Shown here: positions 1-11,003 of the stretch, one piece after another | Numbering within the stretch: position 1 is the first letter of the stretch | Layout: every line of letters starts with the position of its first letter | From: a virus | Lineage: Duplodnaviria > Heunggongvirae > Uroviricota > Caudoviricetes | IMG/VR virus record: IMGVR_UViG_2698536418_000025 | Direction: 5' to 3' (one strand) | DNA length: 11,003 nt | Notes under the pieces: model-generated | What the model was told of the DNA's origin: nothing | The model's database searches: none | Seen by the model: the letters and a program-made list of their open reading frames with translations, nothing else | Made by a program: the position numbers and the translations under genes

Positions 1-105
1 TTACTCTAATGCATCAGCAGGCCATGTTCCATTTACTTCATAAGTGTTTTTTAAATTAACAGCATAAAAAGCATTTTCCGAAGGGGAATAAATATATTGA
101 TTCAT
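1..105 (-). pseudogene. Short ORF (34 aa) resembling the N-terminus of a tail-fibre assembly chaperone; probably a truncated remnant
   Basis: Hand translation of the reverse strand 105->1 gives MNQYIYSPSENAFYAVNLKNTYEVNGTWPADALE followed by TAA at 3..1. The ATG (105-103) lies 1 nt after the TAA of the upstream fibre ORF, with AGGAAG about 5 nt upstream, as in coupled fibre/chaperone pairs. The F-Y...G-W-P-A-D-A-L-E pattern is typical of Tfa N-termini, but full-length Tfa proteins are about 150-200 aa. Confidence 0.35.
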
Positions 106-106
106 A

Positions 107-1267
107 TTATCTTCCTATTGCGATAATCATAGTTCCATACAAACCATTTCCGGTTGATACTTTTAAGGTTACTGATGTCCTTGTTGTCGTGTACCCCATA
201 AGTTTAAAGGTCGGAGCAGCGGTTAATGAGCCATCTGACCATAAGGCACTAACAGCCAGTGCGCCTGAAGGAAATGCAATAGGGAAATTACCTGTAGTTC
301 CGTTAGTGTCCGCCCCATAAACATTCATCGAAAACATTTGGACAATATGACCACTTGGTAACTGAAACCAGTTTTTGCCAGATGGAAATGCAGACATATC
401 TGGTATCTGATTTTCCCCTGTTCCCACATTCCGTTTTGCCGCTTCTCCCAAACCAAGGTAATCAAGAACTCCCTGAGTGCTGGTTTTACCAAGAATGGCA
501 CGTCCAACACTTGTCAACGCGGTTAACGCGGCACGATCTGCCCCTGTAAAATATGGGAGTTTATCTGCTGATGTAGCAAGCTCCGCCAGCGCCGTCAGGG
601 TGGCATCCTTCGGTTGCTTACCCGCAAGCGCGTTAGTCATGGTGGTCGCAAAATTCGGGTCATTGCCCAGCGCCGCAGCCAGTTCGTTCAGCGTGTTCAG
701 TGCATCAGGTGACGAATCTACAAGTGCGGCAATCGCGGCCATAACGAAAGCCGTGCTTGCGATCTGGGTACTATTAGTTCCCTGTGGCGCTGTTGGTGTT
801 GTTGGCGTTCCGGTCAGTGCCGGGCTGTTTAATGGTGCTTTCTTGTTCGTTTCATCCATTACCACCTTAACAGCTTTTGGTGTCGCTGCCAGCGTTTCAG
901 ACGTGCTGTTCGTGGCGCTACTGAGCTGAACAATCCCTTTTTGTATAGTGGTGGCGTTCTGGGCGGTATATTTCCCGTTAGCCAGGTCATATGCAGCCTT
1001 AACCGCTTTCGGTGTTGCGGCCAGTGTTTCTGATTCACTGTTAATTGCACTGCTTAACTGAGTAAAACCTTTTGCGGTCAGCGAGGCGTCCGGGTGACGT
1101 CGTGACTGTTCGTGCTCTGAGATTTTATCATCCACATATTTGCGGGTTGCCAGAACCACAGACGGGTCGATTTTCAGCGTGATAGCTTCGGTGTTCGTGA
1201 CAACCAGAATCATGCGGATAGTCTGGGTGCGTCCACTGCCTTCCTGCAACTGCGGTTTGATTCCCAT
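107..1267 (-). CDS. P2 gpH-like tail fibre protein, N-terminally truncated, with conserved shaft repeats and a distinct C-terminal receptor-binding domain
   Basis: The 386-aa ORF carries the repeated fibre motif SLTAKGFTQLSSAxNSxSETLAATPKAVK (twice), then VMDETNKKAPLNSPALTG, and a C-terminal domain ending ...GNGLYGTMIIAIGR. The reading frame is closed by TAA at 1307-1309, only 14 codons upstream of the first ATG, so the roughly 100-aa N-terminal region seen in full-length H-type fibres (as recalled) is absent. Confidence 0.8.
   Translation of the reverse strand: MGIKPQLQEGSGRTQTIRMILVVTNTEAITLKIDPSVVLATRKYVDDKISEHEQSRRHPDASLTAKGFTQLSSAINSESETLAATPKAVKAAYDLANGKYTAQNATTIQKGIVQLSSATNSTSETLAATPKAVKVVMDETNKKAPLNSPALTGTPTTPTAPQGTNSTQIASTAFVMAAIAALVDSSPDALNTLNELAAALGNDPNFATTMTNALAGKQPKDATLTALAELATSADKLPYFTGADRAALTALTSVGRAILGKTSTQGVLDYLGLGEAAKRNVGTGENQIPDMSAFPSGKNWFQLPSGHIVQMFSMNVYGADTNGTTGNFPIAFPSGALAVSALWSDGSLTAAPTFKLMGYTTTRTSVTLKVSTGNGLYGTMIIAIGR
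443..468. other. 26-bp Hin/Gin/Cin-type recombinase crossover site (site 1) inside the fibre gene at the shaft/variable junction
   Basis: TTCTCCCAAACCAAGGTAATCAAGAA has 12-bp imperfect inverted half-sites around a central AA, resembling hix (TTCTTGAAAACCAAGGTTTTTGATAA) and gix. It encodes LDYLGLGE in the fibre reading frame. Confidence 0.6.
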
Positions 1268-1476
1268 GAGTTTAAATCCATCGAACGGCAGATAGCATAA
1301 CCCGCCTTATGTATACCAGGTTCATCCAGACAGGAATATGCAGGGATACCGACACCAATGGCAAGATATTCATTTGAAGTAGAAATATATTCCCGAGTTT
1401 TACCATCATAGTTATAGACGGTAATATTCCCCGCCTTCGTGGCAATAAGCTCGCTATTTAATACGGCGTTATCCAT
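1210..1476 (-). pseudogene. Tail-fibre assembly chaperone (Tfa) N-terminal fragment, truncated and overlapping the start of the downstream fibre ORF
   Basis: The 88-aa ORF contains TVYNYDGKTREYISTSNEYLAIGVGIPAYSCLD, a typical Tfa N-terminal motif. It starts in a TAATG overlap with the stop of the preceding fibre cassette. Tfa-like similarity ends near residue 70 and the frame runs into the fibre ORF in another frame. Confidence 0.6.
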
Positions 1477-1997
1477 TATGCAGCCCTCACGATATAGTTA
1501 AATGCAATATTTCGTGGACGGGTTTCACTCCCGCCAGTATTACCGATACTCCCTCGTGAATGAAGTGTCGGTGATGGGATCAGACTCCCTCCTGTATTTG
1601 TGGCATCAAGTCCACGTCCTTGTGTGTATGTCTTTTTGAAAATCGTAGCCAGTTCCCATTCATCTTTTGTGTCGTAACCATCATTGGCAACAACAATATG
1701 GCGGTGTTTTTCCAGCATCCCTGTCTGAATGCTCAATAAAACACGTCCTGCATCAATACCGCGCCCGTCATCCCAGCCACGAATAAACTCACCACGTAAA
1801 TCAGGTAATTTATTTGTCGGATAAGCCTTTGCCAGTTCCGGGTATTCTTCAGCAGAAAAAGCCGCACCGTTGCATTTCAGCCAGCCTGTTGGCGGTGTGG
1901 CTGAAGGCCATGGAACAGGCACACCAACAGGTAATGCAGAGCCTTCTCCCAAACCAACGTTTAAGAAAATGCAGAGATTACGGCTAACTGGCATCAT
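1476..1997 (-). CDS. Tail-fibre variable C-terminal cassette (Mu S / P2 H type receptor-binding domain), apparently promoterless
   Basis: The 173-aa ORF has the motif PVGVPVPWPSATPPTGWLKCNGAAFSAEEYPELAKAYPTNKLPDLRGEFIRGWDDGRGID typical of Mu S / P2 H C-termini. Crossover site 2 lies in codons 10-18, and there is no fibre shaft region upstream. Confidence 0.7.
   Translation of the reverse strand: MMPVSRNLCIFLNVGLGEGSALPVGVPVPWPSATPPTGWLKCNGAAFSAEEYPELAKAYPTNKLPDLRGEFIRGWDDGRGIDAGRVLLSIQTGMLEKHRHIVVANDGYDTKDEWELATIFKKTYTQGRGLDATNTGGSLIPSPTLHSRGSIGNTGGSETRPRNIAFNYIVRAA
1944..1969. other. 26-bp Hin/Gin/Cin-type recombinase crossover site (site 2), 55 bp upstream of the invertase start codon
   Basis: TTCTCCCAAACCAACGTTTAAGAAAA shares its first 14 bp exactly with site 1 in the same orientation. 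It encodes FLNVGLGE in the cassette reading frame. Confidence 0.65.
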
Positions 1998-2024
1998 CCC
2001 CGGTTTTTATTCAGGGGATCCATC

Positions 2025-2624
2025 ATGCTTATTGGCTATGTCCGCGTATCAACAAATGACCAGAATACAGAATTGCAGCGTAACGCGCTGGAGTGCGCAG
2101 GATGTGAACTGATTTTTGAAGATAAAATCAGCGGAACGAAATCAGCCAGACCGGGATTGAAAAAACTGCTCAGAACGCTATCAGAAGGAGATACGCTGGT
2201 TGTCTGGAAGCTGGACAGACTGGGCAGAAGTATGAAACACCTGATCACGCTTATTGAGGAATTGCGGGAAAAAGGTGTTAATTTCCGTAGTCTGACGGAC
2301 AGCATTGACACATCAACACCCATGGGGCGTTTCTTTTTTCACGTCATGGGAGCTTTAGCCGAAATGGAACGTGAATTAATTGTAGAGCGTACACTGGCCG
2401 GGCTGGCAGCAGCACGCGCACAAGGACGCATTGGCGGACGTCGCCCGAAGTTGACAAAAGAACAACACGAGCAAATAGCGAGGCTGATTAAAAACGGTCA
2501 TGACAGGAAACAACTGGCGATCATTTACGACATCGGCATATCGACGATTTATCGTTATCACCCTGTAGGCGATATACAGGCTGAAGAAACAATCAGGCAG
2601 ATTCAGGAAAATGAAAACCGCTAA
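2025..2624 (+). CDS. Serine-recombinase DNA invertase (Gin/Pin/Cin/Hin family)
   Basis: The 199-aa ORF begins MLIGYVRVSTNDQNTELQRNAL with the catalytic Ser in the VRVST motif, and contains GDTLVVWKLDRLGRS, SLTDSIDTSTPMGRFFFHVMGALAEMERELIVERT and a C-terminal helix-turn-helix region. It closely resembles Gin/Pin as recalled. Confidence 0.95.
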   Translation: MLIGYVRVSTNDQNTELQRNALECAGCELIFEDKISGTKSARPGLKKLLRTLSEGDTLVVWKLDRLGRSMKHLITLIEELREKGVNFRSLTDSIDTSTPMGRFFFHVMGALAEMERELIVERTLAGLAAARAQGRIGGRRPKLTKEQHEQIARLIKNGHDRKQLAIIYDIGISTIYRYHPVGDIQAEETIRQIQENENR

Positions 2625-2643
2625 TCTGACCATTAGCGGTTTT
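2614..2643. terminator. Bidirectional intrinsic terminator between the convergent invertase and U genes
   Basis: A perfect 12-bp inverted repeat, AAAACCGCTAAT (2614-2625) and ATTAGCGGTTTT (2632-2643), surrounds a 6-nt loop. A/T runs flank the stem on both strands, and the stem overlaps the invertase stop codon (2622-2624). Confidence 0.55.
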
Positions 2644-2650
2644 GCGTTAA

Positions 2651-3145
2651 TCAAAACAGCCCTTTAACGGAGCTGGCCGCGCTGTTAAGGGATGATGTGA
2701 CCTTATCTTTGAAGCCGGACAGCATATCACTGAACGATGAGGATTGCAGGCGCTCCCGCAAATCCTCATCACAGCGTTCAAGAGTCAGTGAAAATTCTAT
2801 CTTTTTCGCCTTACCGTAGCGATCAAACTCGGAGCGGGTCGTATTCGTTTCAGTCAGTACATACATGCCGTAAATCTGTCCGACGCCATCAATCAGAGGC
2901 CAGGGGCGTCCTGTATACGCCTGCGTGGTCAGCAGCGACAGCGACACTTCGCCACCTGTGATTTCAGGATAAAGCACACCAGAAAGCACGATGCGATCAT
3001 CGCCTGCCCCGATATACTGCCAGCTTGCTGAACGGTTAACGCGTTCATTTTTCACATGCCGCCAGCTTTTATTTTGCTGTAACTGCTGATGCGGCAATGT
3101 GCGCAGCTCAAAAACAAACATGCCGTAGATCATCATCATGGCCAT
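2651..3145 (-). CDS. U: P2 gpU-family tail protein
   Basis: The 164-aa ORF lies immediately downstream of the tape-measure gene in the P2 gene order; size and sequence pattern (...TGGEVSLSLL...GRPWPLIDGVGQIYGMYVLTE...) match gpU as recalled. Confidence 0.8.
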   Translation of the reverse strand: MAMMMIYGMFVFELRTLPHQQLQQNKSWRHVKNERVNRSASWQYIGAGDDRIVLSGVLYPEITGGEVSLSLLTTQAYTGRPWPLIDGVGQIYGMYVLTETNTTRSEFDRYGKAKKIEFSLTLERCDEDLRERLQSSSFSDMLSGFKDKVTSSLNSAASSVKGLF

Positions 3146-3151
3146 GACTCC

Positions 3152-5995
3152 TCAATCTTTATCGTAAAAACTGCCACGTCCGGCACGGTCGCGTCGTTCC
3201 AATTCTGCCCTGACCATTTCACCGACCAGTTTCGCCAGTTCGCGGGGATTCTGCGTAACAACGTTATGCAGATGAACATGAATTTCACCGCCAAATCCGG
3301 AGACAACAGGCTCCCGGTTACGGGAAGTTGCAGGAACTGATGCCACTGGCGATCGTATGGCCTCCGCCACCGGGCGGGAGCTGGCCGCAACAACAGGGAC
3401 CAGCGCCGGAGGCAGAGGAGTCGGGACCACGGGTGTGATGTTGATTGCGGAAGCAGGCTTACTGACCTGCGCAATCTTCCGCTCCTGCCACTCCCCACGA
3501 ACAGCAAGTGCGCGGGGCAGGTTCTTAAAGACAATATCGCCGGGGCCAATGCGTTTTTTCGTCTCATCAACCAGCTTACCTGTGTTATCAGCAATTTTGC
3601 TGAGTCTGCGTAGCGTACCGGTATTGCTGTCTGTGAGCGGTTTGTTGTCTTTGGGTTTATCACCTCCGGTGCCATTGCCATTTTCCACAGGCTTCGGCGG
3701 ATTGATTTTCGCCAGGTCCCCCTGAAGCAAGGCAACCTTGTCCTGAAGAATGGCCGCACGCTGTGCGTCTTCGATTTTCTTGCGCGCCCTTTCCGCTTCA
3801 TCCGGAAGGACGCCAAGTTTTTCAAGTATCCACGCCAGCGTATCCAGTAGCATTTTTGCAGGCGTCAGAACAAGTTGTAACGCACCGCCAAGAACGTTAC
3901 CGAATATCTCGCCAGCACTGGTACATTTATCCAGCGTTTCCTTGCTGGACTCCATCGGTGACAGCAGCGATTTAAACCAGTTAAACACCTGGCTGATCCC
4001 GCTTCCGATTGCGTCAAAAACAGGACCAAACCGTTCAAAGGTTTCGCGCAACGGGGCCAGCCTTTCCATAATCCCGCTGAACACCCCGGCAAAAAATGCC
4101 CTGATGGGATCCCAGTATTTCCAGATAAGAACGGCAGCTCCGGCAAGCGCAGCCACGATAAGACCAACCGGACTGAACAGCGCCCCGATAGCACCCCCCA
4201 GCAAAGAAACGGAACCCGTCACCATTCCCCATAGTGCTGGCAGGAGCCTGACAGCATTCATTGATCCGGTCAGGAGGGAAAAACCAAGACGCAGTTTTGC
4301 CAGTGGGCCAGCAAGCACACCAAGAGCAAGCGACAACGAGCCTACGGTTGCAGTCACTGCCAGCAGCGCACCGCCTGCAATCAGTAGCTGGCGCGTCAGT
4401 ACAGGATGGGCCTGCGCCAGTGCCGTCACCTTTGAGACCACCCGCGTTAGCCACTGCGTGACAGAACGCAGCGGACCGTCAATCAGATCTGCAATGCGGA
4501 TGCGCAACCCTTCCCATGCACTGCCGAGTGATTTCAGATCGCCGTCAAGGTTGTTGGCCATAACCTTTGCCGTGCGCTCAGCCTCACCGCGCGCGCCTTC
4601 AAGTTCTTTTCTCAGTTTAGGTAAGGAGCCGTCACCTGCCGCATCAACGAGGGCCATAAATGATGTGAAAGCCTCTTCTCCGGCAATGTCCTTAAAGAAC
4701 GATACCCGGTCAACTTCCCCGTATTTGCGGGTGGCTTTATAAAGGTCGGCCAGCAAATCCTCCATCGGGCGCATTTTGCCGTTCGCATCAGAGACGGACA
4801 CGCCCAGCTCTTTCAGAGCTTCTGCCGCCGCCTTTGGCGGTGATGCCAGACGAGCCAGGCTGGCACGCATTGCCGTCCCGGCATCACTTCCCCTGATACC
4901 CATATTCGCCAGTACGCCCGCCATCGCTGCGGCCTGCTCCAGCGATATTCCCAGCTTGCCCGCCACCGGACCTGCATATTTCATGGTTTCACCCAGTGCG
5001 CGAAGGTCAGTGTTGGTACGGGTAAACGCTGCGGTAAGTGTGTCACCGACCCGGTCCATCTGGTCAGCAGAAAGGCCGAACTGCGTCAGGATATTTGAGC
5101 CAATATCCGCCGTCTCGCCGAGATCCATACCGCCAGCCGTTGCCATGCTCAGCACGCCGGGAAGCGCAGCCTGAATGGCCTGCGGAGTAAAACCAGCCAT
5201 TGCAAGAAATGCCTGCCCACTGGCGGCATCGCCTGCGGTGAACTGCGTTTCAGAGCCAAGTTTTAACGCCTGCTCACGCAGCGCCTTAAACTGCGGGCTG
5301 TTTTTGTCGATTCGCGTCAGTGCCTGAACGCGGGACATCTCTTTCCCGAACCCGATCGCAGGCTGCAAAAAACGCCCGGCAGCATAGCCGCCCGCAGCTG
5401 CCGCACCAATTGCCAGCGCACCACCTGTTTTCAGTTTTCCCGCTGTTTCCTGTGCGCGCGAATACCGCTCACGCGCCCGCGTTACACGCGCAAGCGCCTG
5501 CCGTTCGCGTTCAAGCTGGTTGTTGTACTGTTCGGTGCGTCTGATGGCCTGCTGGATGGTGTTATCGCTGCCTGTCAGGGAAATGCCGTGGCGTTTCAGC
5601 TCTCCGCCAAGCTCCCGCATTTTCTGAATTTCCCGTGTGCGCGATTCATTCAGGCGTTCAAGCCGGGTGCTTAACTGCTGCATCAGCTTTTGTTGTTTTT
5701 CGCTGAGCACTGTACCCGTGCGTTGTAACTGATTAAGGGCGTTAAGCTGGCGTCGTGCTTTCACGATACCCGCATCCGCTTTACTGACAGCGTCGCGGGC
5801 GCGCTCAAATGAACGCGCCTGACGCTCGAGATTTTTGATCGCCCCCTGCGTTCGCTGGATGGAGTCACCAAACTGCCCCATCAGGCGGCGTGCGTTTTCT
5901 GCAGGTCGGGTCAGCCTGTCAACGGCGCTGAAAGCGACCCGGATATCAAGAGTCTTCATTGTCTGCATTCCCGCTGCGAAGTGCCGCCCGCTCAC
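3152..5995 (-). CDS. T: Tail tape-measure protein (P2 gpT family)
   Basis: The 947-aa ORF has a coiled-coil-rich N-terminal region, Gly/Ala-rich hydrophobic segments, and sits between E/E' and U. The track start at 5995 is GTG; in-frame ATGs at 5966-5968 and 5957-5959 (the latter with GGGA 9 nt upstream) are alternative starts. Confidence 0.9.
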   Translation of the reverse strand: MSGRHFAAGMQTMKTLDIRVAFSAVDRLTRPAENARRLMGQFGDSIQRTQGAIKNLERQARSFERARDAVSKADAGIVKARRQLNALNQLQRTGTVLSEKQQKLMQQLSTRLERLNESRTREIQKMRELGGELKRHGISLTGSDNTIQQAIRRTEQYNNQLERERQALARVTRARERYSRAQETAGKLKTGGALAIGAAAAGGYAAGRFLQPAIGFGKEMSRVQALTRIDKNSPQFKALREQALKLGSETQFTAGDAASGQAFLAMAGFTPQAIQAALPGVLSMATAGGMDLGETADIGSNILTQFGLSADQMDRVGDTLTAAFTRTNTDLRALGETMKYAGPVAGKLGISLEQAAAMAGVLANMGIRGSDAGTAMRASLARLASPPKAAAEALKELGVSVSDANGKMRPMEDLLADLYKATRKYGEVDRVSFFKDIAGEEAFTSFMALVDAAGDGSLPKLRKELEGARGEAERTAKVMANNLDGDLKSLGSAWEGLRIRIADLIDGPLRSVTQWLTRVVSKVTALAQAHPVLTRQLLIAGGALLAVTATVGSLSLALGVLAGPLAKLRLGFSLLTGSMNAVRLLPALWGMVTGSVSLLGGAIGALFSPVGLIVAALAGAAVLIWKYWDPIRAFFAGVFSGIMERLAPLRETFERFGPVFDAIGSGISQVFNWFKSLLSPMESSKETLDKCTSAGEIFGNVLGGALQLVLTPAKMLLDTLAWILEKLGVLPDEAERARKKIEDAQRAAILQDKVALLQGDLAKINPPKPVENGNGTGGDKPKDNKPLTDSNTGTLRRLSKIADNTGKLVDETKKRIGPGDIVFKNLPRALAVRGEWQERKIAQVSKPASAINITPVVPTPLPPALVPVVAASSRPVAEAIRSPVASVPATSRNREPVVSGFGGEIHVHLHNVVTQNPRELAKLVGEMVRAELERRDRAGRGSFYDKD

Positions 5996-6475
5996 GCCAG
6001 CTAACCACTTCGCCGGGCGTCATCATGAAGATTTCGGCGGGCGACCAGTTAAAAATAACGGCAATATCTGCCACAAAGTCTTCTATGTGCTCAAAGCACA
6101 CAACCGTGATCAGGCTTCCGTCGCCTGTTCGTTCTTCCCGCCAGAGTCCGCACCGCTCAAAAAATTTACGGCAACCACACATAACTGAATAAAGTCACGG
6201 GATGCCATTTTTTTGATCGTCACTTCATCCAGTCGCGGTGATGTCACGCGTGACAGCAGCGTAAACATGGATTCCGCTTTCAGATTCAGCACATCAGACA
6301 GCGACAAATCTCGCAGAGATCCAGCCTGCTCAATAGCCCCGGTGATCTCCACATACGTGATTTTTTCGCCGCCTCGCTCAATTGGTTGGGTAAGTTTTAC
6401 GCCACGCTCACTGGTTTCTTTCACAGTGTCAGCAACTACCGTGTTTTCGGTATCGATGTTTTTCGTCTCTTTCAT
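5946..6475 (-). CDS. E': Tail assembly chaperone E+E' (-1 programmed frameshift product)
   Basis: The E frame (6110-6475) and the E' frame (5946-6182) overlap at a slippery T-TTT-TTG heptamer, with E' in the -1 frame. This is the arrangement upstream of tape-measure genes in P2-like and lambda-like tails. Confidence 0.7.
6110..6475 (-). CDS. E: Tail assembly chaperone gpE
   Basis: The 121-aa ORF between the tube and tape-measure genes has AAGGAG upstream of its ATG and ends ...VAVNFLSGADSGGKNEQATEA. Confidence 0.85.
   Translation of the reverse strand: MKETKNIDTENTVVADTVKETSERGVKLTQPIERGGEKITYVEITGAIEQAGSLRDLSLSDVLNLKAESMFTLLSRVTSPRLDEVTIKKMASRDFIQLCVVAVNFLSGADSGGKNEQATEA
6158..6164 (-). 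other. Slippery heptamer TTTTTTG for the E/E' -1 translational frameshift
   Basis: Plus-strand caaaaaa at 6158-6164 is TTTTTTG on the minus strand. The E frame reads AAT-TTT-TTG (N-F-L) and the E' frame reads TTT-TTT-GAG (F-F-E). Confidence 0.7.
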
Positions 6476-6529
6476 CAGGAAACTCCTTTCAGTCAGAGGC
6501 GGCGCACTGCGCCGCCTGCATATTACTTA

Positions 6530-7042
6530 TCAGCCAAGCCCAAGCGCGGAACGGATGCGATCAGGCACGATGTCCTTGCCGTCCTTCCGGTAGATGTGGT
6601 TCAGCAGGTCGATTTCCCACAGCGGACGATCGTTAACGCTCAGCTTGTAGTAGGTGTTTTTGACAGCGTAAGTGTGTGATGTGGCTTCGCCCTGTTTGGC
6701 TTCCCCCATATCAATTTCCGTCACACGCCCGCGCATCTCGATTTCATACAGATCACTTTCTGCATCGGTGTAGTATTCACCCGCAAAACGCAGCAACGTG
6801 CCGTCAATCGTGCCGCCATATTTAAGGAACAGCTCACGAACTGCGCCCCCCATGACAAAACTCGCATCAAGCGCAGAATCATCAAGACCGAGGTCGATAC
6901 TCACCGCCCCCATCATGCCACCGCCACGATAGCTTTCAGTTTTGCGCGTCAGTTTAGGTGGAGTGACGGACGTCACCTTACCCACTTCGTTTTCACCATT
7001 CACAAACAGCGTAAAAAAGCGAAGATGTTTTGGTACAGCCAT
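6530..7042 (-). CDS. FII: Tail tube protein (P2 gpFII family)
   Basis: The 170-aa ORF has PPKLTRKTESYRGGGMMGA...DLGLDDSALDA...RFAG..Y, matching the P2 FII pattern as recalled. Its start overlaps the sheath gene stop (ATGA-type coupling at 7042). Confidence 0.9.
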   Translation of the reverse strand: MAVPKHLRFFTLFVNGENEVGKVTSVTPPKLTRKTESYRGGGMMGAVSIDLGLDDSALDASFVMGGAVRELFLKYGGTIDGTLLRFAGEYYTDAESDLYEIEMRGRVTEIDMGEAKQGEATSHTYAVKNTYYKLSVNDRPLWEIDLLNHIYRKDGKDIVPDRIRSALGLG

Positions 7043-8226
7043 CAGACACCTCCCAACACCGCAAATGCGGGATCAAAGTATTCATCAGTAAACGTCTGGT
7101 AAAGCTCCATATCTTCCAGCGGAGGAACGGGCGTATATTTGTAGCGAATACGCACACGCCCCTGACGTAAATCCGTGGTGCTGTTATCCACCACGTCATA
7201 CCAGCACGACGCGCCAATCAGTTTCCCGGCAGTAACCAGTGAATCCAGTTTTGCCCTGATGGCACTGATAACATCCTTCACGTTCGCAGGCGTCAGTGGA
7301 CTGTCGATGGTTTCAAACTGCGCTTCCGCAATTGAATCAGCCAGCACCTGTGCGGTTCGGGTATACACCTCAAAGATGTAGGCGTTCGTTTCCGGTGTGC
7401 GGTTGCCCCAGAAGCGGAACCCGTTGCGACGAATAATGGTCGTGATTTCTTTGTTGTTGAGGCTGTTGGCATCACTGTCTTCGGCCTGCAACGACCAGAA
7501 CACATGCCTGGACATTCCCAGCACATTTTTAACCGGAACGTTGGACAGCGATTTGTGCCAGCCCTGCTCATGGTCAATGTACGCACGAAGGCCGCACGCA
7601 TAGGCAGGCGCGGGGAACGTTTCGTTTTTGCCACTTTTCGGGTTGTAGGCGATGAAGTCCGGCCATAAGAGCATCACCTCACGTTCGTTGAATTTCTGGC
7701 GGTAGGTAATCGCCTCAGCCATCGTGTTACAGCCGTGACATGAGGCATACACAAACGCGCGCAGCTTACCCGCAATCACGCACAGGGATTTTGTCACCGC
7801 CTCCGTGTCCAGCTCCGGCGCGGCCAGAATACGCGGACGGTATCCGATGCTTTCATCCTGTTCTGCAACAAGCAGCGCATACATCCCCGTATAGCTGCCG
7901 TCATCCTCAGAACCACCGATAACCAGTTGATCCTGCGTCTTTCCGTCTTCTTCTTTGTGTTCAGCCACGCGAACGACGATCACCTTTGTGCTCACCTGGT
8001 CTGCGATGGCCTTAAGCGCACGATAAAGCGTCCCCGTTGTTCCGCATTTTCCCAGCACGTCATTGACGCGGGTCAGCAGTGTGGGCTTGTTCAGCGGGAA
8101 CAGCTTCGCGTCCGCATCATCCGCCGTTGCCACGATACCGATAACGCTGGAATCAACATCGTTAATCGCTGTTACCAGGTCGGTATTTTCCGTAACACGG
8201 GCACCATGAAAACGAGTTTCACTCAT
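7042..8226 (-). CDS. FI: Tail sheath protein (P2 gpFI family)
   Basis: The 394-aa ORF has the conserved sheath motifs FPLNKP, AIADQ, KLRAF, YRQKF, WPDF, EQGWHKSLSNV, IRRNGFRFWGNRT, YTRTAQV and TPVPPLE. AGGGGG lies 7 nt upstream of the ATG. Confidence 0.92.
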   Translation of the reverse strand: MSETRFHGARVTENTDLVTAINDVDSSVIGIVATADDADAKLFPLNKPTLLTRVNDVLGKCGTTGTLYRALKAIADQVSTKVIVVRVAEHKEEDGKTQDQLVIGGSEDDGSYTGMYALLVAEQDESIGYRPRILAAPELDTEAVTKSLCVIAGKLRAFVYASCHGCNTMAEAITYRQKFNEREVMLLWPDFIAYNPKSGKNETFPAPAYACGLRAYIDHEQGWHKSLSNVPVKNVLGMSRHVFWSLQAEDSDANSLNNKEITTIIRRNGFRFWGNRTPETNAYIFEVYTRTAQVLADSIAEAQFETIDSPLTPANVKDVISAIRAKLDSLVTAGKLIGASCWYDVVDNSTTDLRQGRVRIRYKYTPVPPLEDMELYQTFTDEYFDPAFAVLGGV

Positions 8227-8383
8227 AGCTTCACCCCCTTGTATCCGTTAAATGATTCGGCAACAATCATCACCCACCACGCGCGTAATCTCACCCCTGC
8301 GCCATTCTCCCGCCACGGCGACAACAAAAAGCAGTAACCCCCTCCGCACGCACATGCGACCATGCCGCACAGGGAGGGAACAG

Positions 8384-9493
8384 ATGACCGACACCACCAT
8401 GCAATTGCTCAGTCAGAGCACAGACCCCGTAAAAATGCCGGATTTTGATATTCTCGCGGAGGGTAAAACGCTGTCCGGCGTGGCGGAGCGCCTGATGAGC
8501 CTGTCGCTGACCGACAACCGGGGATTTGAGGCAGACCAGATCGCCATCACGCTGGATGATGCGGATGGTCAGTTGCAGCTACCGCCACGGGGCGCGCGCC
8601 TGACGGTTCTCATTGGCTGGAAAGGAGAACCGCTGACAGAAAAAGGCACTTACATTGTTGATGAAATTGCTCATGAAGGACCGCCCGACAGGCTGACTGT
8701 TTCAGCCAGAAGCGCAGATTTTCGGGATGAATTTAACGTTAAACGTGAGGTGTCCTGGCATGATGTGACCGTTGAGCGCGTGGTATCCGCCATCGCTCAT
8801 CGGTACGGTCTGAAACCGCAAATCAGCGAAATGCTGATGGATATTGAAATCGACCACGCCGACCAGACCGAAGAAAGCGACATGTCCTTCCTTACACGCA
8901 TGGCGGAAATGCTGGGCGCAATCACCACGGTAAAAAGCGGTAATCTGTTATTCATCATGCCCGGCGGTGGCGTGAATGCACAGGGCCAGCCGTTGCCCTC
9001 GTTCGCCATCACACGCAGCAGCGGCGATCGCCATCAGTTCCGCATTGCTGACCGCGAAGCGTATACGGGGGTACGCGCTTACTGGCTTGATCTTAATTAC
9101 GGGAAAAAGAAAAAAGTCAGCGTGAAACGCCGCAAACCGCCAAAACCCAAAAAGGAGAAAAGCAGCAGCCGTGAAGGTGATTATATGGAAGGTGCGGCAG
9201 GCAATGTGTTTGTGTTACGCAAGACTTACCAGAACGAGCAGGCAGCAAGGCGTGCAGCGGCGGCAAAGTGGCAGCAACTACAACGCGGAGCCGCATCATT
9301 CTCCATCACGCTGGCGCGTGGACGTGCAGAACTCTACCCTGAAATGCATGGCACGGTGACAGGCTTCAAAAGTGACATCGACAATCAGGACTGGATTATT
9401 GCAAAAGCCGAGCACACCATTGATAACAGCGGCTTTACCACGCAGCTTGAGCTTGAAGCCAAAATCCCGGAATGGATAGCGGAAACAGAATGA
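8384..9493 (+). CDS. D: P2 gpD-family tail protein (late control D)
   Basis: The ORF is about 370 aa from the ATG at 8384, which has a strong AGGGAGGG Shine-Dalgarno 5 nt upstream. The track ORF begins in frame at 8252 but that start has no visible SD. Size and position next to ogr fit gpD. Confidence 0.8.
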   Translation: MTDTTMQLLSQSTDPVKMPDFDILAEGKTLSGVAERLMSLSLTDNRGFEADQIAITLDDADGQLQLPPRGARLTVLIGWKGEPLTEKGTYIVDEIAHEGPPDRLTVSARSADFRDEFNVKREVSWHDVTVERVVSAIAHRYGLKPQISEMLMDIEIDHADQTEESDMSFLTRMAEMLGAITTVKSGNLLFIMPGGGVNAQGQPLPSFAITRSSGDRHQFRIADREAYTGVRAYWLDLNYGKKKKVSVKRRKPPKPKKEKSSSREGDYMEGAAGNVFVLRKTYQNEQAARRAAAAKWQQLQRGAASFSITLARGRAELYPEMHGTVTGFKSDIDNQDWIIAKAEHTIDNSGFTTQLELEAKIPEWIAETE

Positions 9494-9581
9494 GCAATTT
9501 AGATGCCCTTACTCAGACCTAAGTCAGTATATTTATTGCGCACACTAAGCTCATTAAGACAATTCACTCTACATTAATTTC

Positions 9582-9609
9582 TTGAACACAACCCAATAAA
9601 CGATAAAAT
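9582..9609 (+). promoter_or_regulatory. Candidate sigma70 promoter for the cargo gene
   Basis: TTGAAC (9582-9587), a 16-bp spacer, then TAAAAT (9604-9609), about 37 bp upstream of the ATG at 9646, in an AT-rich intergenic region. This is a motif match only. Confidence 0.3.
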
Positions 9610-9645
9610 TTTCATGGTATTTCTTCCCCATAATAAGAGAACTGT

Positions 9646-10251
9646 ATGAGCAATAACTGGATATATGTTGGTGCTAATATTAATGATCACCAATGGTCAA
9701 AAGTAGGAAAAACAACTCGCGGTCTGCAGAATAGACATGTCTCATCCCAGAACCCAGGGTTCTTTATTTACACTGCTTATAACATCATAGACGGTGATGT
9801 TCATGAGATTGAGTCTAATCTTTTGGTATATCTTGAGTCTCAACCTGGTGTTAAGCGTATACGTCACCTTAGCACCGGCAGTAAAAGTGAGTGTTTTTCT
9901 GTGCACCCTGAAGAAGTTGCCTGTTTAGTGGAATCATTTATCAATAATCACTATCCCTCATGTGTAACTCACGAGTTTTTATTTGACGGAATAAGCCGCT
10001 ATCAATGCCCTAAAGATTTGTATAACAATTTTAATCGACATCAGAAGCCTGATGAAAAGTTACCATCATGGTGTGAAGAGCCTTCGACACATCTTCCAAA
10101 TAATTTGAATATGTCTTCCGAAAAGTACTTTACAAGTAATCAGGTAGAACATGAAGCCGATTTAGGGAATGGATATTTTGTTGATTACCTCACAGGACTA
10201 CAGGGATATAGGGATGAAGATGGAAACGAAATTTATGATGAACCTAAATAA
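9646..10251 (+). CDS. Hypothetical cargo protein with an N-terminal GIY-YIG-like (T5orf172/MUG113-type) domain and an uncharacterised Cys-containing, acidic C-terminal half
   Basis: The 201-aa ORF has AAGAGA 5 nt upstream of the ATG. Its N-terminus has IYV (aa 6-8), KVGKTTRGLQNR (aa 19-30), HEIE (aa 53-56) and SECF (aa 81-84), arranged like the GIY / (K)IG-T / R / E pattern of T5orf172-type GIY-YIG domains. It is strongly AT-rich and sits between D and ogr. Confidence 0.6.
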   Translation: MSNNWIYVGANINDHQWSKVGKTTRGLQNRHVSSQNPGFFIYTAYNIIDGDVHEIESNLLVYLESQPGVKRIRHLSTGSKSECFSVHPEEVACLVESFINNHYPSCVTHEFLFDGISRYQCPKDLYNNFNRHQKPDEKLPSWCEEPSTHLPNNLNMSSEKYFTSNQVEHEADLGNGYFVDYLTGLQGYRDEDGNEIYDEPK

Positions 10252-10411
10252 GATAACAAATCATTAGATGGTAACTTATTGAATACAATGCATTTTTATA
10301 GTTAATTCTGAAGAGAAAACAATTCCATTTACCATTCAAAGCGGACTAACGGTTGGAGTCTGAGTCAGTACAACTTAGAATAGCGGCAGCATCACGTTAA
10401 GGGAGGTCGCT

Positions 10412-10672
10412 ATGTTCCGTTGTCCGCTTTGTGGCGCATCTGCCCGTATCCGCACCAGTCGTCCGGAAAATGATTCAAACACAGTGCGGCAAAAATATTA
10501 CCAGTGTAACAATCTGGAATGCGGCGTATGCTTCTCAACACTGGAAGCTTTCCATAAATTCACATCGAAACACGCTCCCGGCGTTCACTCTTCAGAGGGC
10601 ATCCCGTGGAATGAGCTGCCAGCTTCGCACAGGGGAAACAACCAGATGAGTTTGCCTTTACCTCAGAATTAA
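10412..10672 (+). CDS. ogr: Ogr/Delta-family zinc-finger late-gene transcriptional activator
   Basis: The 86-aa ORF begins MFRCPLCGASARIRTSR and has a second Cys pair in YYQCNNLECGVCF, giving a C-X2-C...C-X4-C zinc finger as in P2 Ogr. A strong AAGGGAGG Shine-Dalgarno lies 5 nt upstream. Confidence 0.85.
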   Translation: MFRCPLCGASARIRTSRPENDSNTVRQKYYQCNNLECGVCFSTLEAFHKFTSKHAPGVHSSEGIPWNELPASHRGNNQMSLPLPQN

Positions 10673-10732: not shown

Positions 10733-10996
10733 ATGGTCGGAGGGAATACCCGAAGGCCAGATGTGGAAAGGCCCCGGAAAACATTTCTGTTTAACCGAGG
10801 CCCTAACCGCATTACCTTGACAAGTGAAAGGTTAGCGCCTCTCCGGAAAAGGAGCAAGTGCTATGTCGCAAAAATCGCTTACGGCCATCACGTTCTGCGT
10901 GACGGCAATCCTCATCATCTGGATGCTGCACGGTTCGCTGTGCGAAATACGGATGAGCTTCTGGGGAGCGGAGTTTGCGGCGTTCTTACAGTGTAA
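10733..10996 (+). CDS. Mok-like overlapping reading frame of the hok locus (start uncertain)
   Basis: The 87-aa ORF is in a different frame from hok, overlaps nearly all of it, and ends 7 nt before the hok stop, the geometry of mok in hok/sok loci. It has no recognisable sequence motif of its own. Confidence 0.3.
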   Translation: MVGGNTRRPDVERPRKTFLFNRGPNRITLTSERLAPLRKRSKCYVAKIAYGHHVLRDGNPHHLDAARFAVRNTDELLGSGVCGVLTV

Positions 10997-11003
10997 GCAG
11001 TAA
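10863..11003 (+). CDS. hok: Hok/Gef-family type I toxin (small membrane peptide)
   Basis: Hand translation gives MSQKSLTAITFCVTAILIIWMLHGSLCEIRMSFWGAEFAAFLQCKQ (46 aa): an N-terminal hydrophobic helix followed by SLCEIR and E-x-AAF motifs matching Hok family toxins (Hok R1 has ...SLCEIRYRDGHREVAAFMA). AAGGAG lies 8 nt upstream of the ATG. Confidence 0.75.
   Translation: MSQKSLTAITFCVTAILIIWMLHGSLCEIRMSFWGAEFAAFLQCKQ

Follow-up and report, generated by a model that had tools for sequence, protein, structure and literature searches.

The closest described systems are the G segment of phage Mu with its invertase Gin and, likewise, the C segment of P1 with Cin and the P segment of e14 with Pin. 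Each pairs a serine invertase of ~190 aa, whose gene starts beside one of the crossover sites, with 26-bp sites located inside a fiber gene at the constant/variable junction. The alternative fiber C-termini stand in opposite orientations, each with its own assembly chaperone. In Gin, Cin, and Hin systems, the 5' portion of the invertase gene itself contains a cis-acting, Fis-dependent recombinational enhancer. Directly repeated sites are nearly refractory to enzymes of the Gin/Hin class, giving at most a rare deletion. Crossover sites can occur in both relative orientations in Min of p15B and in the R64 shufflon, the latter driven by a tyrosine recombinase. Gin/Pin-type tail-fiber switching is already well documented in P2-like prophages. 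For instance, an invertase lies beside tail genes in P88, pro483, and the Xuanwuvirus P884B11, and the P2-like prophages of EPEC E2348/69 include both two-site and three-site invertible tail-fiber loci (PMC4272514).

Here, we analyze a stretch of 11,003 nucleotides (the window) that is the reverse complement of the start of CYCB01000022.1 (L015), a draft contig of E. coli assembly GCA_001283405.1. The system is of the known kind described above and shares its phage type and module with the P2-like invertible loci of E. coli. It departs from the Mu, P1, and e14 switches in that, within the window, it has crossover sites in direct orientation, two truncated chaperone genes, and a fiber gene (H) lacking its N-terminus; moreover, the host phage is P2-like, with a sheath-to-gpU operon opposite in orientation to H. 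Unlike working P2-like invertible loci, this copy is disrupted by an insertion sequence (IS), appears rearranged, and is probably not a working member. On a modest balance of evidence, we favor reading it as an ordinary two-site Gin/Pin-type tail-fiber switch of a P2-like (P88-type) prophage that has been rearranged and disabled. The features discussed below are as follows.

1–4, minus strand: ISCro1 (IS66 family), outermost bases of its left inverted repeat; the source contig and sisters continue into the IS
5–12, no strand: one copy of an 8-bp target-site duplication, GCATTAGA on the coding strand
1–105, minus strand: tfa (tfaA), truncated assembly gene partnering the Gp53-like tip, from translation
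107–442, minus strand: receptor-binding tip 1, Gp53-like_C (PF21882, residues 303–386 of a 386-aa ORF)
443–468, no strand: crossover site 1, with TTCTCCCAAACC as the inner half-site, AA as the core, and GGTAATCAAGAA as the outer half-site on the shaft side
469–1259, minus strand: H shaft, constant part from codon 110 onward; 100% identical to L014 (from 8847) and to JP538 H
1260, no strand: junction base, A in the window and N in the deposit; single-N join of two assembled pieces
1261–1476, minus strand: tfa' (tfaB), 5' part of 72 codons, cut at the join, from alignments
1476–1943, minus strand: receptor-binding tip 2, Collar domain (PF07484)
1944–1969, no strand: crossover site 2, with TTCTCCCAAACC as the inner half-site, AA as the core, and CGTTTAAGAAAA as the outer half-site on the invertase side
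2025–2624, plus strand: Gin/Pin-family serine DNA invertase, 199 aa, Resolvase and HTH_7 domains

Invertase, fiber gene, and alternative tips

The invertase matches PF00239 (E = 6e-52) and PF02796, as expected of a small serine recombinase, and its residues 1–184 align with the Mu Gin structures 4m6f and 3uj3 (E = 1.5e-91). The identical protein is found in many E. coli prophages.

Full-length H has 493 aa in sister assemblies. Codons 1 to ~110, which make up the baseplate-attachment domain, are missing from the window, and the PF12571 match in the shaft covers profile positions 111–150 of 150 only. Tip 1 is joined in frame to the shaft through site 1 and shares 99.3% identity with the cassette that is silent in E. 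coli JP538. Tip 2 is a silent, promoterless cassette starting at site 2; in JP538, which is in the other flip state, H (537 aa) ends with this same segment. The initial annotation described the two receptor-binding domains as unrelated and as encoding two alternative specificities. Both statements are correct: one tip is Gp53-like_C, the other Collar, and a BLASTP comparison between them gives E = 0.41. These are the only cassettes seen in the window and its relatives, and in the window the minus strand carries the two tips as well as the two truncated tfa genes, i.e., the cassettes do not face each other. Searched against NCBIfam, none of the four ORFs scored above a family's curated cutoff.

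The truncated tfa product has 34 aa, comprising 33 native codons and one IS-derived codon followed by a stop; its intact homologue in relatives has 147 aa (PF02413). Intact tfa' encodes 200 aa (PF28596 and PF02413) in L014 and other relatives.

Crossover sites

Two 26-bp sites sharing 14 bp on one strand had been annotated, and we find them at 443–468 and 1944–1969. Each is built from two imperfect 12-bp inverted half-sites around a 2-bp core. Relative to the Gin/Hin-type 26-bp consensus TTNTCNNAAACCNNGGTTTNNGANAA, site 1 has three mismatches and site 2 has one. A search of the window for the shared 14-mer (TTCTCCCAAACC plus AA, up to two mismatches) returned these two sites only (0.10 expected by chance), and a consensus scan of the 11-kb window with up to three mismatches gave no third match (0.01 expected by chance). 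The site 1 26-mer is identical at the H shaft/tip junction of P88-type relatives with 99–100% identity; the P2-order relative L023 has an outer half-site different from that of site 1. Six of the seven intact relatives share the site 2 26-mer exactly, UTAK-1 (L002) differing at two bases; the invertase gene starts 55 bp downstream of site 2, here and in the relatives. The crossover point is in the L/V codon of a (L/V)GLGE motif. Both sites were originally placed at a shaft/variable junction and read as an L-G-L-G-E hinge; this describes site 1 (...DYLGLGE), but site 2 encodes NVGLGE and heads a silent, shaft-less cassette beside the invertase.

The half-site TTCTCCCAAACC and the non-palindromic AA core read the same way round on the plus strand at both sites. 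The direct orientation reported earlier is therefore borne out for the window as written, instead of the inverted one typical of Gin/Hin/Cin/Pin switches; its corollary, that Gin/Hin enzymes do not invert direct repeats, is established knowledge. Window position 1260, an N in the deposit, lies between the two sites; thus, their relative orientation depends on a scaffold join and not on continuous sequence.

Comparison with intact relatives

Seven intact relatives, six of which encode the identical invertase, have exactly two sites each, always inverted; the loci scanned measured 10–20 kb each and extended 6–10 kb on either side. Their order is H shaft, site, tip A, tfaA, tfaB, tip B, opposite-orientation site, and invertase, so the two tips, with their own chaperone genes, face each other. 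Both flip states are represented, including among the relatives with the identical invertase, with H ending in either Collar or Gp53-like_C. Two draft contigs (L011 and L012) break at a crossover site. A flip of such a switch would exchange the Gp53-like tip for the Collar tip together with its assembly chaperone.

Aligned to the intact prophage of JP538, window segments 5–459, 442–1259, 1260–1957, and 1943–9805 each match at 99.3–100%. These pieces are rearranged in order and orientation, and outside this block the window is colinear with JP538, at 99.9–100% identity. The sister assemblies CYBY and CYCC are 100% identical to the window over shared pieces; in both, H is intact (493 aa), has the same single upstream site, and precedes the same tfa-ISCro1 junction.

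To account for direct repeats, the initial annotation had offered either inverted partners outside the window, in a Min- or shufflon-like system, or a scrambled locus. In the former case, the window would hold two of at least three sites, generated, e.g., by a tandem duplication of Collar-site-shaft followed by inversions, and a third, inverted site with a full-length H would lie beyond it. Three-site P2-like prophage shufflons do exist in E. coli E2348/69 (PMC4272514), the H N-terminus missing from the window must be elsewhere, and a duplication with two inversions can formally yield the order b'-S-e-d-S-a'. However, we consider a multi-site system very unlikely. p15B Min and R64 have many sites and cassettes, whereas two of each are present here, in the window and in all relatives examined. 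Three or more sites of mixed orientation were seen neither in the 11-kb window nor in any 10–20-kb relative locus, both of which hold two, and each of the seven intact relatives, six of which share the invertase exactly, shows two sites and two cassettes over 6–10 kb to either side. The 100%-identical sisters carry one intact H and one upstream site. Furthermore, if shaft and Collar were duplicated, their copies would be collapsed in the assembly and the contig would be broken at the two sites too, yet it has one N; only one contig of GCA_001283405.1 carries the 34-aa tfa::IS gene; and the 1259/1260 junction is not at a crossover site. The scrambled-locus alternative fares better, being supported by colinearity with JP538 save for a rearranged block with breakpoints off the crossover sites. 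The direct orientation is somewhat more probably than not a secondary rearrangement, less probably a scaffolding error, and very improbably part of a designed multi-site system.

ISCro1 insertion and the proposed inversion

Bases 1–4 of the window, rejected as a SNP or a divergent tfa allele, are the end of ISCro1, whose reverse complement, GTAA, supplies the stop codon of the truncated tfa. L015 and the sister contigs L014 and L016 continue past the window edge as GTAACCGGCTCATTTAAACCG... Only 4 bp of ISCro1 fall within the window, and the remainder was read in L014, which carries the full 2.7-kb element with tnpA, tnpB, and DDE_Tnp_IS66 genes, 100% identical to annotated ISCro1 copies (IRL, GTAACCGG...; IRR, GTAAGCGA...). 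The insertion resembles other IS66 insertions in its GTAA-starting terminal repeats, 8-bp target duplication, and tnpA-tnpB-tnpC genes, the gene set being read in L014. There, the same 8 bp found at 5–12 flank the other side of ISCro1, as ...TCTAATGC/GTAAGCGACTCG. The exact 34-aa tfa product was found in three sister assemblies and one Logan contig, and no others.

The rearrangement we favor can be rationalized into two steps. (i) Insertion: ISCro1 entered tfaA, as the 8-bp duplication on both sides of the element shows. (ii) Inversion: a block consisting of the H shaft from codon 110, site 1, the Gp53 tip, the tfaA 5' end, ISCro1, and both tfa 3' ends would have been inverted relative to the ancestral state kept in the sisters, as the single-N contig join suggests. 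Such an inversion would place H-shaft codon 110 against tfaB codon 72 and turn site 1 into a direct repeat of site 2, leaving H split and both tfa genes truncated. By derivation, starting from the ancestral order, a single inversion of e' S b IS c is enough to give the exact structure of the window, down to the IS end at 1–4. Judging from Gin/Hin biology, the invertase would be left without anything useful to invert, with at most a rare 1.5-kb deletion. If real, the rearrangement illustrates on a small scale how a phase-variable switch can be locked by IS activity together with illegitimate inversion. A decayed copy is to be expected in a domesticated or dying prophage, and the case carries little biological weight.

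ISCro1 by itself does not explain the 1259/1260 join. Of the two breakpoints, 4/5 is the ISCro1 end and 1259/1260 the N of the source record. Neither is at a crossover site, and homology, microhomology, a shared 2-bp core, and crossover-like sequence are all absent between them; this counts against the inversion, which would have to be put down to illegitimate recombination. Action of the invertase at pseudo-sites was rejected as the source of the join because no 2-bp core or microhomology is shared. The nearest CAAACC in H is 6 bp off the breakpoint, and the surrounding 26 bp mismatch the consensus at 8 of 18 specified positions.

The inversion predicts a reciprocal junction in which H codons 1–109 and a stop are followed by the tfaB 3' part. 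When 10 fusion ORFs predicted for this junction were looked up as exact sequences, none was present, a search too weak to count against the inversion. The exact 109-aa H N-terminal peptide is on 13 contigs; the four accessions listed are all from other assemblies, with records titled 'phage tail protein, partial' or 'phage tail protein'. With H residues 1–109 as a homology query, unrelated truncations came up, namely a frameshifted long-read contig and an independent H-to-sheath deletion.

The single-N junction

Compared base by base, the window and L015 differ at one position, L015 8846 (window 1260), which is the only N at the locus in deposited CYCB01000022.1. The junction decisive for the rearrangement is thus an N in the deposit, and the methodological lesson is that the window silently carries a base there, exactly where the apparent anomaly is made. 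The 1259/1260 junction had 0 matches in 5,426 complete E. coli genomes, GTDB representatives, and JGI metagenomes, whether or not the N was treated as a wildcard. The chimeric 386-aa and 88-aa ORFs had no match when looked up, because the N gives an X in deposited translations.

The contig broke exactly at 1259/1260. A clonal, simple inversion would not cause such a break, which therefore points to a branch in the assembly graph, i.e., a mixed culture, an extra copy, or an error.

A scaffolding or assembly artifact would have joined the 1.26-kb piece in the wrong orientation or place, the sites being really inverted. The true order would then be intact H, site, Gp53 tip, tfa::ISCro1, tfa', Collar tip, inverted site, and invertase, and the ambiguity would arise from the invertible segment, the multicopy IS, and tail-fiber modules common to other prophages. 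We regard this account as possible but doubtful. It agrees with a join written as a single N (A in the window), with a junction seen nowhere else in the collections above, with breakpoints lacking microhomology or a site, and with the intact H of the 100%-identity sisters. In addition, the 109-aa H fragment on 13 other contigs, some 'partial', suggests that E. coli contigs may often end here. Yet H codon 110 was read through in both sisters, and tfaB codon 72 in CYBY, by the same pipeline; the ends of the CYCB pieces therefore indicate a real structural difference. These ends have no IS or repeat overhang, unlike IS-bounded ends, which carry 106–110 bp of IS. No natural module arrangement would be expected to bring shaft codon 110 within insert length of tfa' codon 72 in the required orientation, and mixed flip states should yield only outward-facing pairs. 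Finally, a comparable single-N join in L014, between the IS and the tape-measure gene, is corroborated by two flanking bases and by a second IS-right-end junction at the contig end, which suggests that single-N joins from this pipeline mark truly abutting pieces.

Draft assemblies are least trustworthy at invertible segments, IS copies, and shared tail-fiber modules.

A possible IS-mediated inversion and other arrangements

An IS-bounded inversion is present in a sister assembly. In CYBY, the tfa 5' end is linked through ISCro1 to the middle of the tape-measure gene (window ~5232/5233), with a second IS end after the tfa 3' end; in the window, the IS sits within the proposed inverted block and not at its borders. 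By analogy, an intramolecular transposition of ISCro1 into H codon 110 could have inverted the segment from the shaft through the site and tip to the tfa 5' end, leaving a second IS copy between shaft and tfa' that the scaffolder then skipped. CYBY provides the same kind of event on the other side, and the shaft piece ends ..TTTG, compatible with one base of the IS end (GTAA). Even so, this two-step scenario is hardly probable, as the ends at 1259/1260 carry none of the 106–110 bp of IS found at IS-bounded contig ends, the missing 700 bp (tfa and tfa' 3' ends) needs a further deletion, and a single N is not how a 2.7-kb gap would be recorded.

Least probable of all is a culture that held both arrangements, in which a 4.6-kb block (H codon 110 to tfa' codon 72) inverts appreciably at non-canonical sites. 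If true, it would imply a second, unrecognized recombination activity, or an off-target Gin-type invertase, inside the tail-fiber module.

An inversion of the sheath-to-gpU operon (2651–8226) as part of the scrambling was rejected, since the operon has the same order in the intact relatives and in P88-type phages.

Organization of the Tail Region

The window was identified as the tail region of a P2-like prophage. All features left of the serine invertase lie on the minus strand and are listed last, right to left from site 2 to the tail-fibre assembly gene tfa.

Features of the window (coordinates, strand, description)
2025-2624, +, serine invertase
2651-3145, -, gpU
3152-5995, -, tape measure
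6110-6475, -, gpE
6530-7042, -, tube
7042-8226, -, sheath
8252-9493, +, gpD
9646-10251, +, AT-rich 201-aa ORF between gpD and ogr, hypothetical in the JP538 annotation
10412-10672, +, ogr-like gene
10863-11003 (window's end), +, Hok/Gef-family toxin gene (PF01848)
1476-1943, -, Collar-domain fibre tip (domain search)
1261-1476, -, first 72 codons of tfa' (tail-fibre assembly, 200 aa in full)
469-1259, -, shaft of the tail-fibre gene H from codon 110
107-442, -, Gp53-like_C fibre tip (domain search)
1-105, -, second tfa gene, 34 codons

The sheath-tube-E-tape measure-gpU block (2651-8226) is oriented opposite to gpD/ogr (8252-10672) and H, unlike classical P2. The same opposite-running order is found in intact relatives, as well as in P88-type phages, with the 3' end of the invertase abutting that of gpU, while other carriers of the same Collar cassette (L023, L024) retain the P2 order. 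The orientation of this operon is a lineage feature, outside the scrambling described below.

Crossover Sites of a Canonical Two-Site Inversion System

Both crossover sites are real. Their 26-mers read TTCTCCCAAACC-AA-GGTAATCAAGAA and TTCTCCCAAACC-AA-CGTTTAAGAAAA, and sites 1 (443-468) and 2 (1944-1969) are the sole matches in the window to the shared 14-mer (chance expectation 0.10) and to the Gin/Hin-type consensus (0.01). As the window is written, they are direct repeats, as the initial annotation had it, because both the half-site they share and their non-palindromic AA core point the same way. The codon that precedes GLGE on the minus strand contains the crossover. Site 1 translates as D-Y-L-G-L-G-E, continuous with the shaft, and thus lies at a shaft/variable junction as proposed, whereas site 2, for which the same had been claimed, translates as N-V-G-L-G-E and heads a shaft-less silent cassette. 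Comparison of the Gp53-like_C and Collar tips bore out that the two receptor-binding domains are unrelated.

The invertase, which has Resolvase and HTH_7 domains, is closely homologous to Mu Gin (match to PDB 4m6f and 3uj3 over residues 1-184, E about 1e-91), and the identical 199-aa protein is present in many E. coli prophages. Intact prophages carrying it share the order H, site, tip A and tfaA, facing tfaB and tip B, site, invertase; beyond the invertase, all of them have gpU back to sheath on the opposite strand, then gpD. When seven intact loci were scanned, each proved to have exactly two sites, in inverted orientation; the genuine multi-site system that had been entertained for the window is most improbable. 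Six loci share the invertase (UTAK-1 and five that encode the identical protein), and in these the shaft-side 26-mer equals that of the window; L023, the seventh locus, which has the P2 order, differs in the outer half-site. On the invertase side, six of the seven have the identical 26-mer, and UTAK-1 differs at two bases. Genomes whose flanks are 99-100% identical show both flip states: a Collar-ended H with a silent Gp53 tip (L003, L006, L007, L008, L010) and a Gp53-like_C-ended H with a silent Collar tip (L004, L005, L009). L011 and L012 are draft contigs that end at a site, the expected outcome for a mixed culture. Experiments have demonstrated two-site and three-site invertible tail-fibre loci in P2-like E. 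coli prophages (PMC4272514); the underlying inversion system is therefore of a well-known kind.

In UTAK-1 (L002 3674-4766), H is a pseudogene cut after about 234 codons, and the cassette pair downstream of it is otherwise canonical; the tail-fibre module appears to decay commonly.

Breakpoints Away from the Crossover Sites

By blastn against JP538 (L001), the closest complete genome, the window falls into four colinear pieces.

Colinear pieces of the window in JP538 (window; JP538; orientation; identity)
5-459; 8300-7846; reversed; 99.3%
442-1259; 9684-10501; forward; 100%
1260-1957; 9001-9698; forward; 99.9%
1943-9805; 7863-1; reversed; 99.99%

Two of these boundaries coincide with the crossover sites and reflect the ordinary flip state. 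The others, 4/5 and 1259/1260, lie away from the sites and show no microhomology; the 1259/1260 junction is absent from complete E. coli genomes.

The boundary at 4/5 is an insertion. Exact look-up of the 34-aa tfa stub identified the source as contig CYCB01000022.1 of GCA_001283405.1 (L015), reversed, which extends 110 bp past the window and then ends. Beyond window base 5 lies the left end of ISCro1, an IS66-family element, whose tip, window bases 1-4, supplies the stop codon of the stub. The element (ends GTAACCGG... and GTAAGCGA...; 8-bp target duplication GCATTAGA; genes tnpA, tnpB and DDE) is 100% identical to annotated copies. The window was evidently trimmed at gene boundaries, hence a breakpoint at its very edge. 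Two sister assemblies, CYBY01000004.1 (L014) and CYCC01000004.1, are 100% identical across shared pieces; in both, H is intact (493 aa), and the same tfa::ISCro1 junction comes after it.

A Mu-like prophage (L017 10080-10131, Logan ERR1512448) has a near-identical tfa 5' end broken after GCATTAGA, the same position as window 1-12. The interruption is by the IRR end GTAAGCGACTCGTCAGAACCG, a sequence that also forms the right end of ISCro1 in L014; the interrupting element is thus of the IS66 family and lies in opposite orientation. This suggests that the tfa sequence is a preferred IS66-family target.

The junction at 1259/1260 is a single-N join, not continuous sequence. Compared base by base, the window and its source locus differ only at L015 8846 (window 1260), where an N was deposited and the window has A; what turns site 1 relative to site 2 is therefore a join of two separately assembled pieces. 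The A masks this scaffold join and yields two apparent chimeric ORFs (1210-1476 and 107-1267); exact look-up of the 386-aa and 88-aa products found neither, because the N puts an X in the deposited translations.

In an unrelated P2-like prophage (L019 10330-10345, GCA_028633155.1), a deletion runs from H to the sheath gene; its breakpoint in H, after ..TACAAACCG, is 7 bp away from that of the window. The exact 109-aa N-terminal H fragment occurs in 13 other contigs, in part labelled 'partial', and those entries may be contigs ending at that point. Mosaic joints or breaks may recur at the boundary after the H N-terminal domain.

Origin of the Direct Orientation

The initial annotation was right to offer a scrambled locus as an alternative: the scrambling combines an IS insertion with a second change, which is either a block inversion or a scaffold misjoin. 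The H-forward sister order is H(1-109) // H(110-) - site - Gp53 tip - tfa 5' - ISCro1 - tfa 3' / tfa' 3' // tfa' 5' - Collar tip - site - invertase. A single inversion of the block between the double slashes, from H(110-) to tfa' 3', would give the exact window order, IS tip included.

CYBY01000004.1 (L014 10106-12803, 17448-17598) has an ISCro1-bounded inversion that interrupts the tape-measure gene at about window 5232/5233, where the middle of that gene now meets the tfa 5' end, and that flips gpU-invertase-site-Collar-tfa'. It likewise leaves its two sites in direct orientation, and its join, which also holds a single N, is corroborated by flanking bases and a second IS junction. We lean towards a real rearrangement in the window because this analogous join is corroborated, because the same pipeline read through both positions in the sisters, because the contig ends that meet at 1259/1260 carry no repeat overhang, and because no natural arrangement or flip-state mixture gives properly oriented read pairs between the ends. 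A scaffolding error is quite possible: the junction is unsequenced and unique, the region holds an invertible segment, a multicopy IS and modules common to other prophages, and a clonal simple inversion should not break a contig. That the join conceals an IS copy is very unlikely.

If the arrangement is real, the prophage could make no fibre from this locus, because H breaks off after codon 109 and the two chaperone genes are truncated. Productive synapsis by Gin/Hin-type enzymes needs inverted sites on one supercoiled molecule and a Fis-bound enhancer; between direct repeats inversion does not occur, and deletion is rare at most. A real rearrangement would therefore have locked the switch.

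At the far end of the window, the 201-aa ORF (9646-10251), with no Pfam or PADLOC match, may be phage cargo, and the Hok/Gef gene lies at the prophage edge, adjoining ihfA-pheT in JP538.
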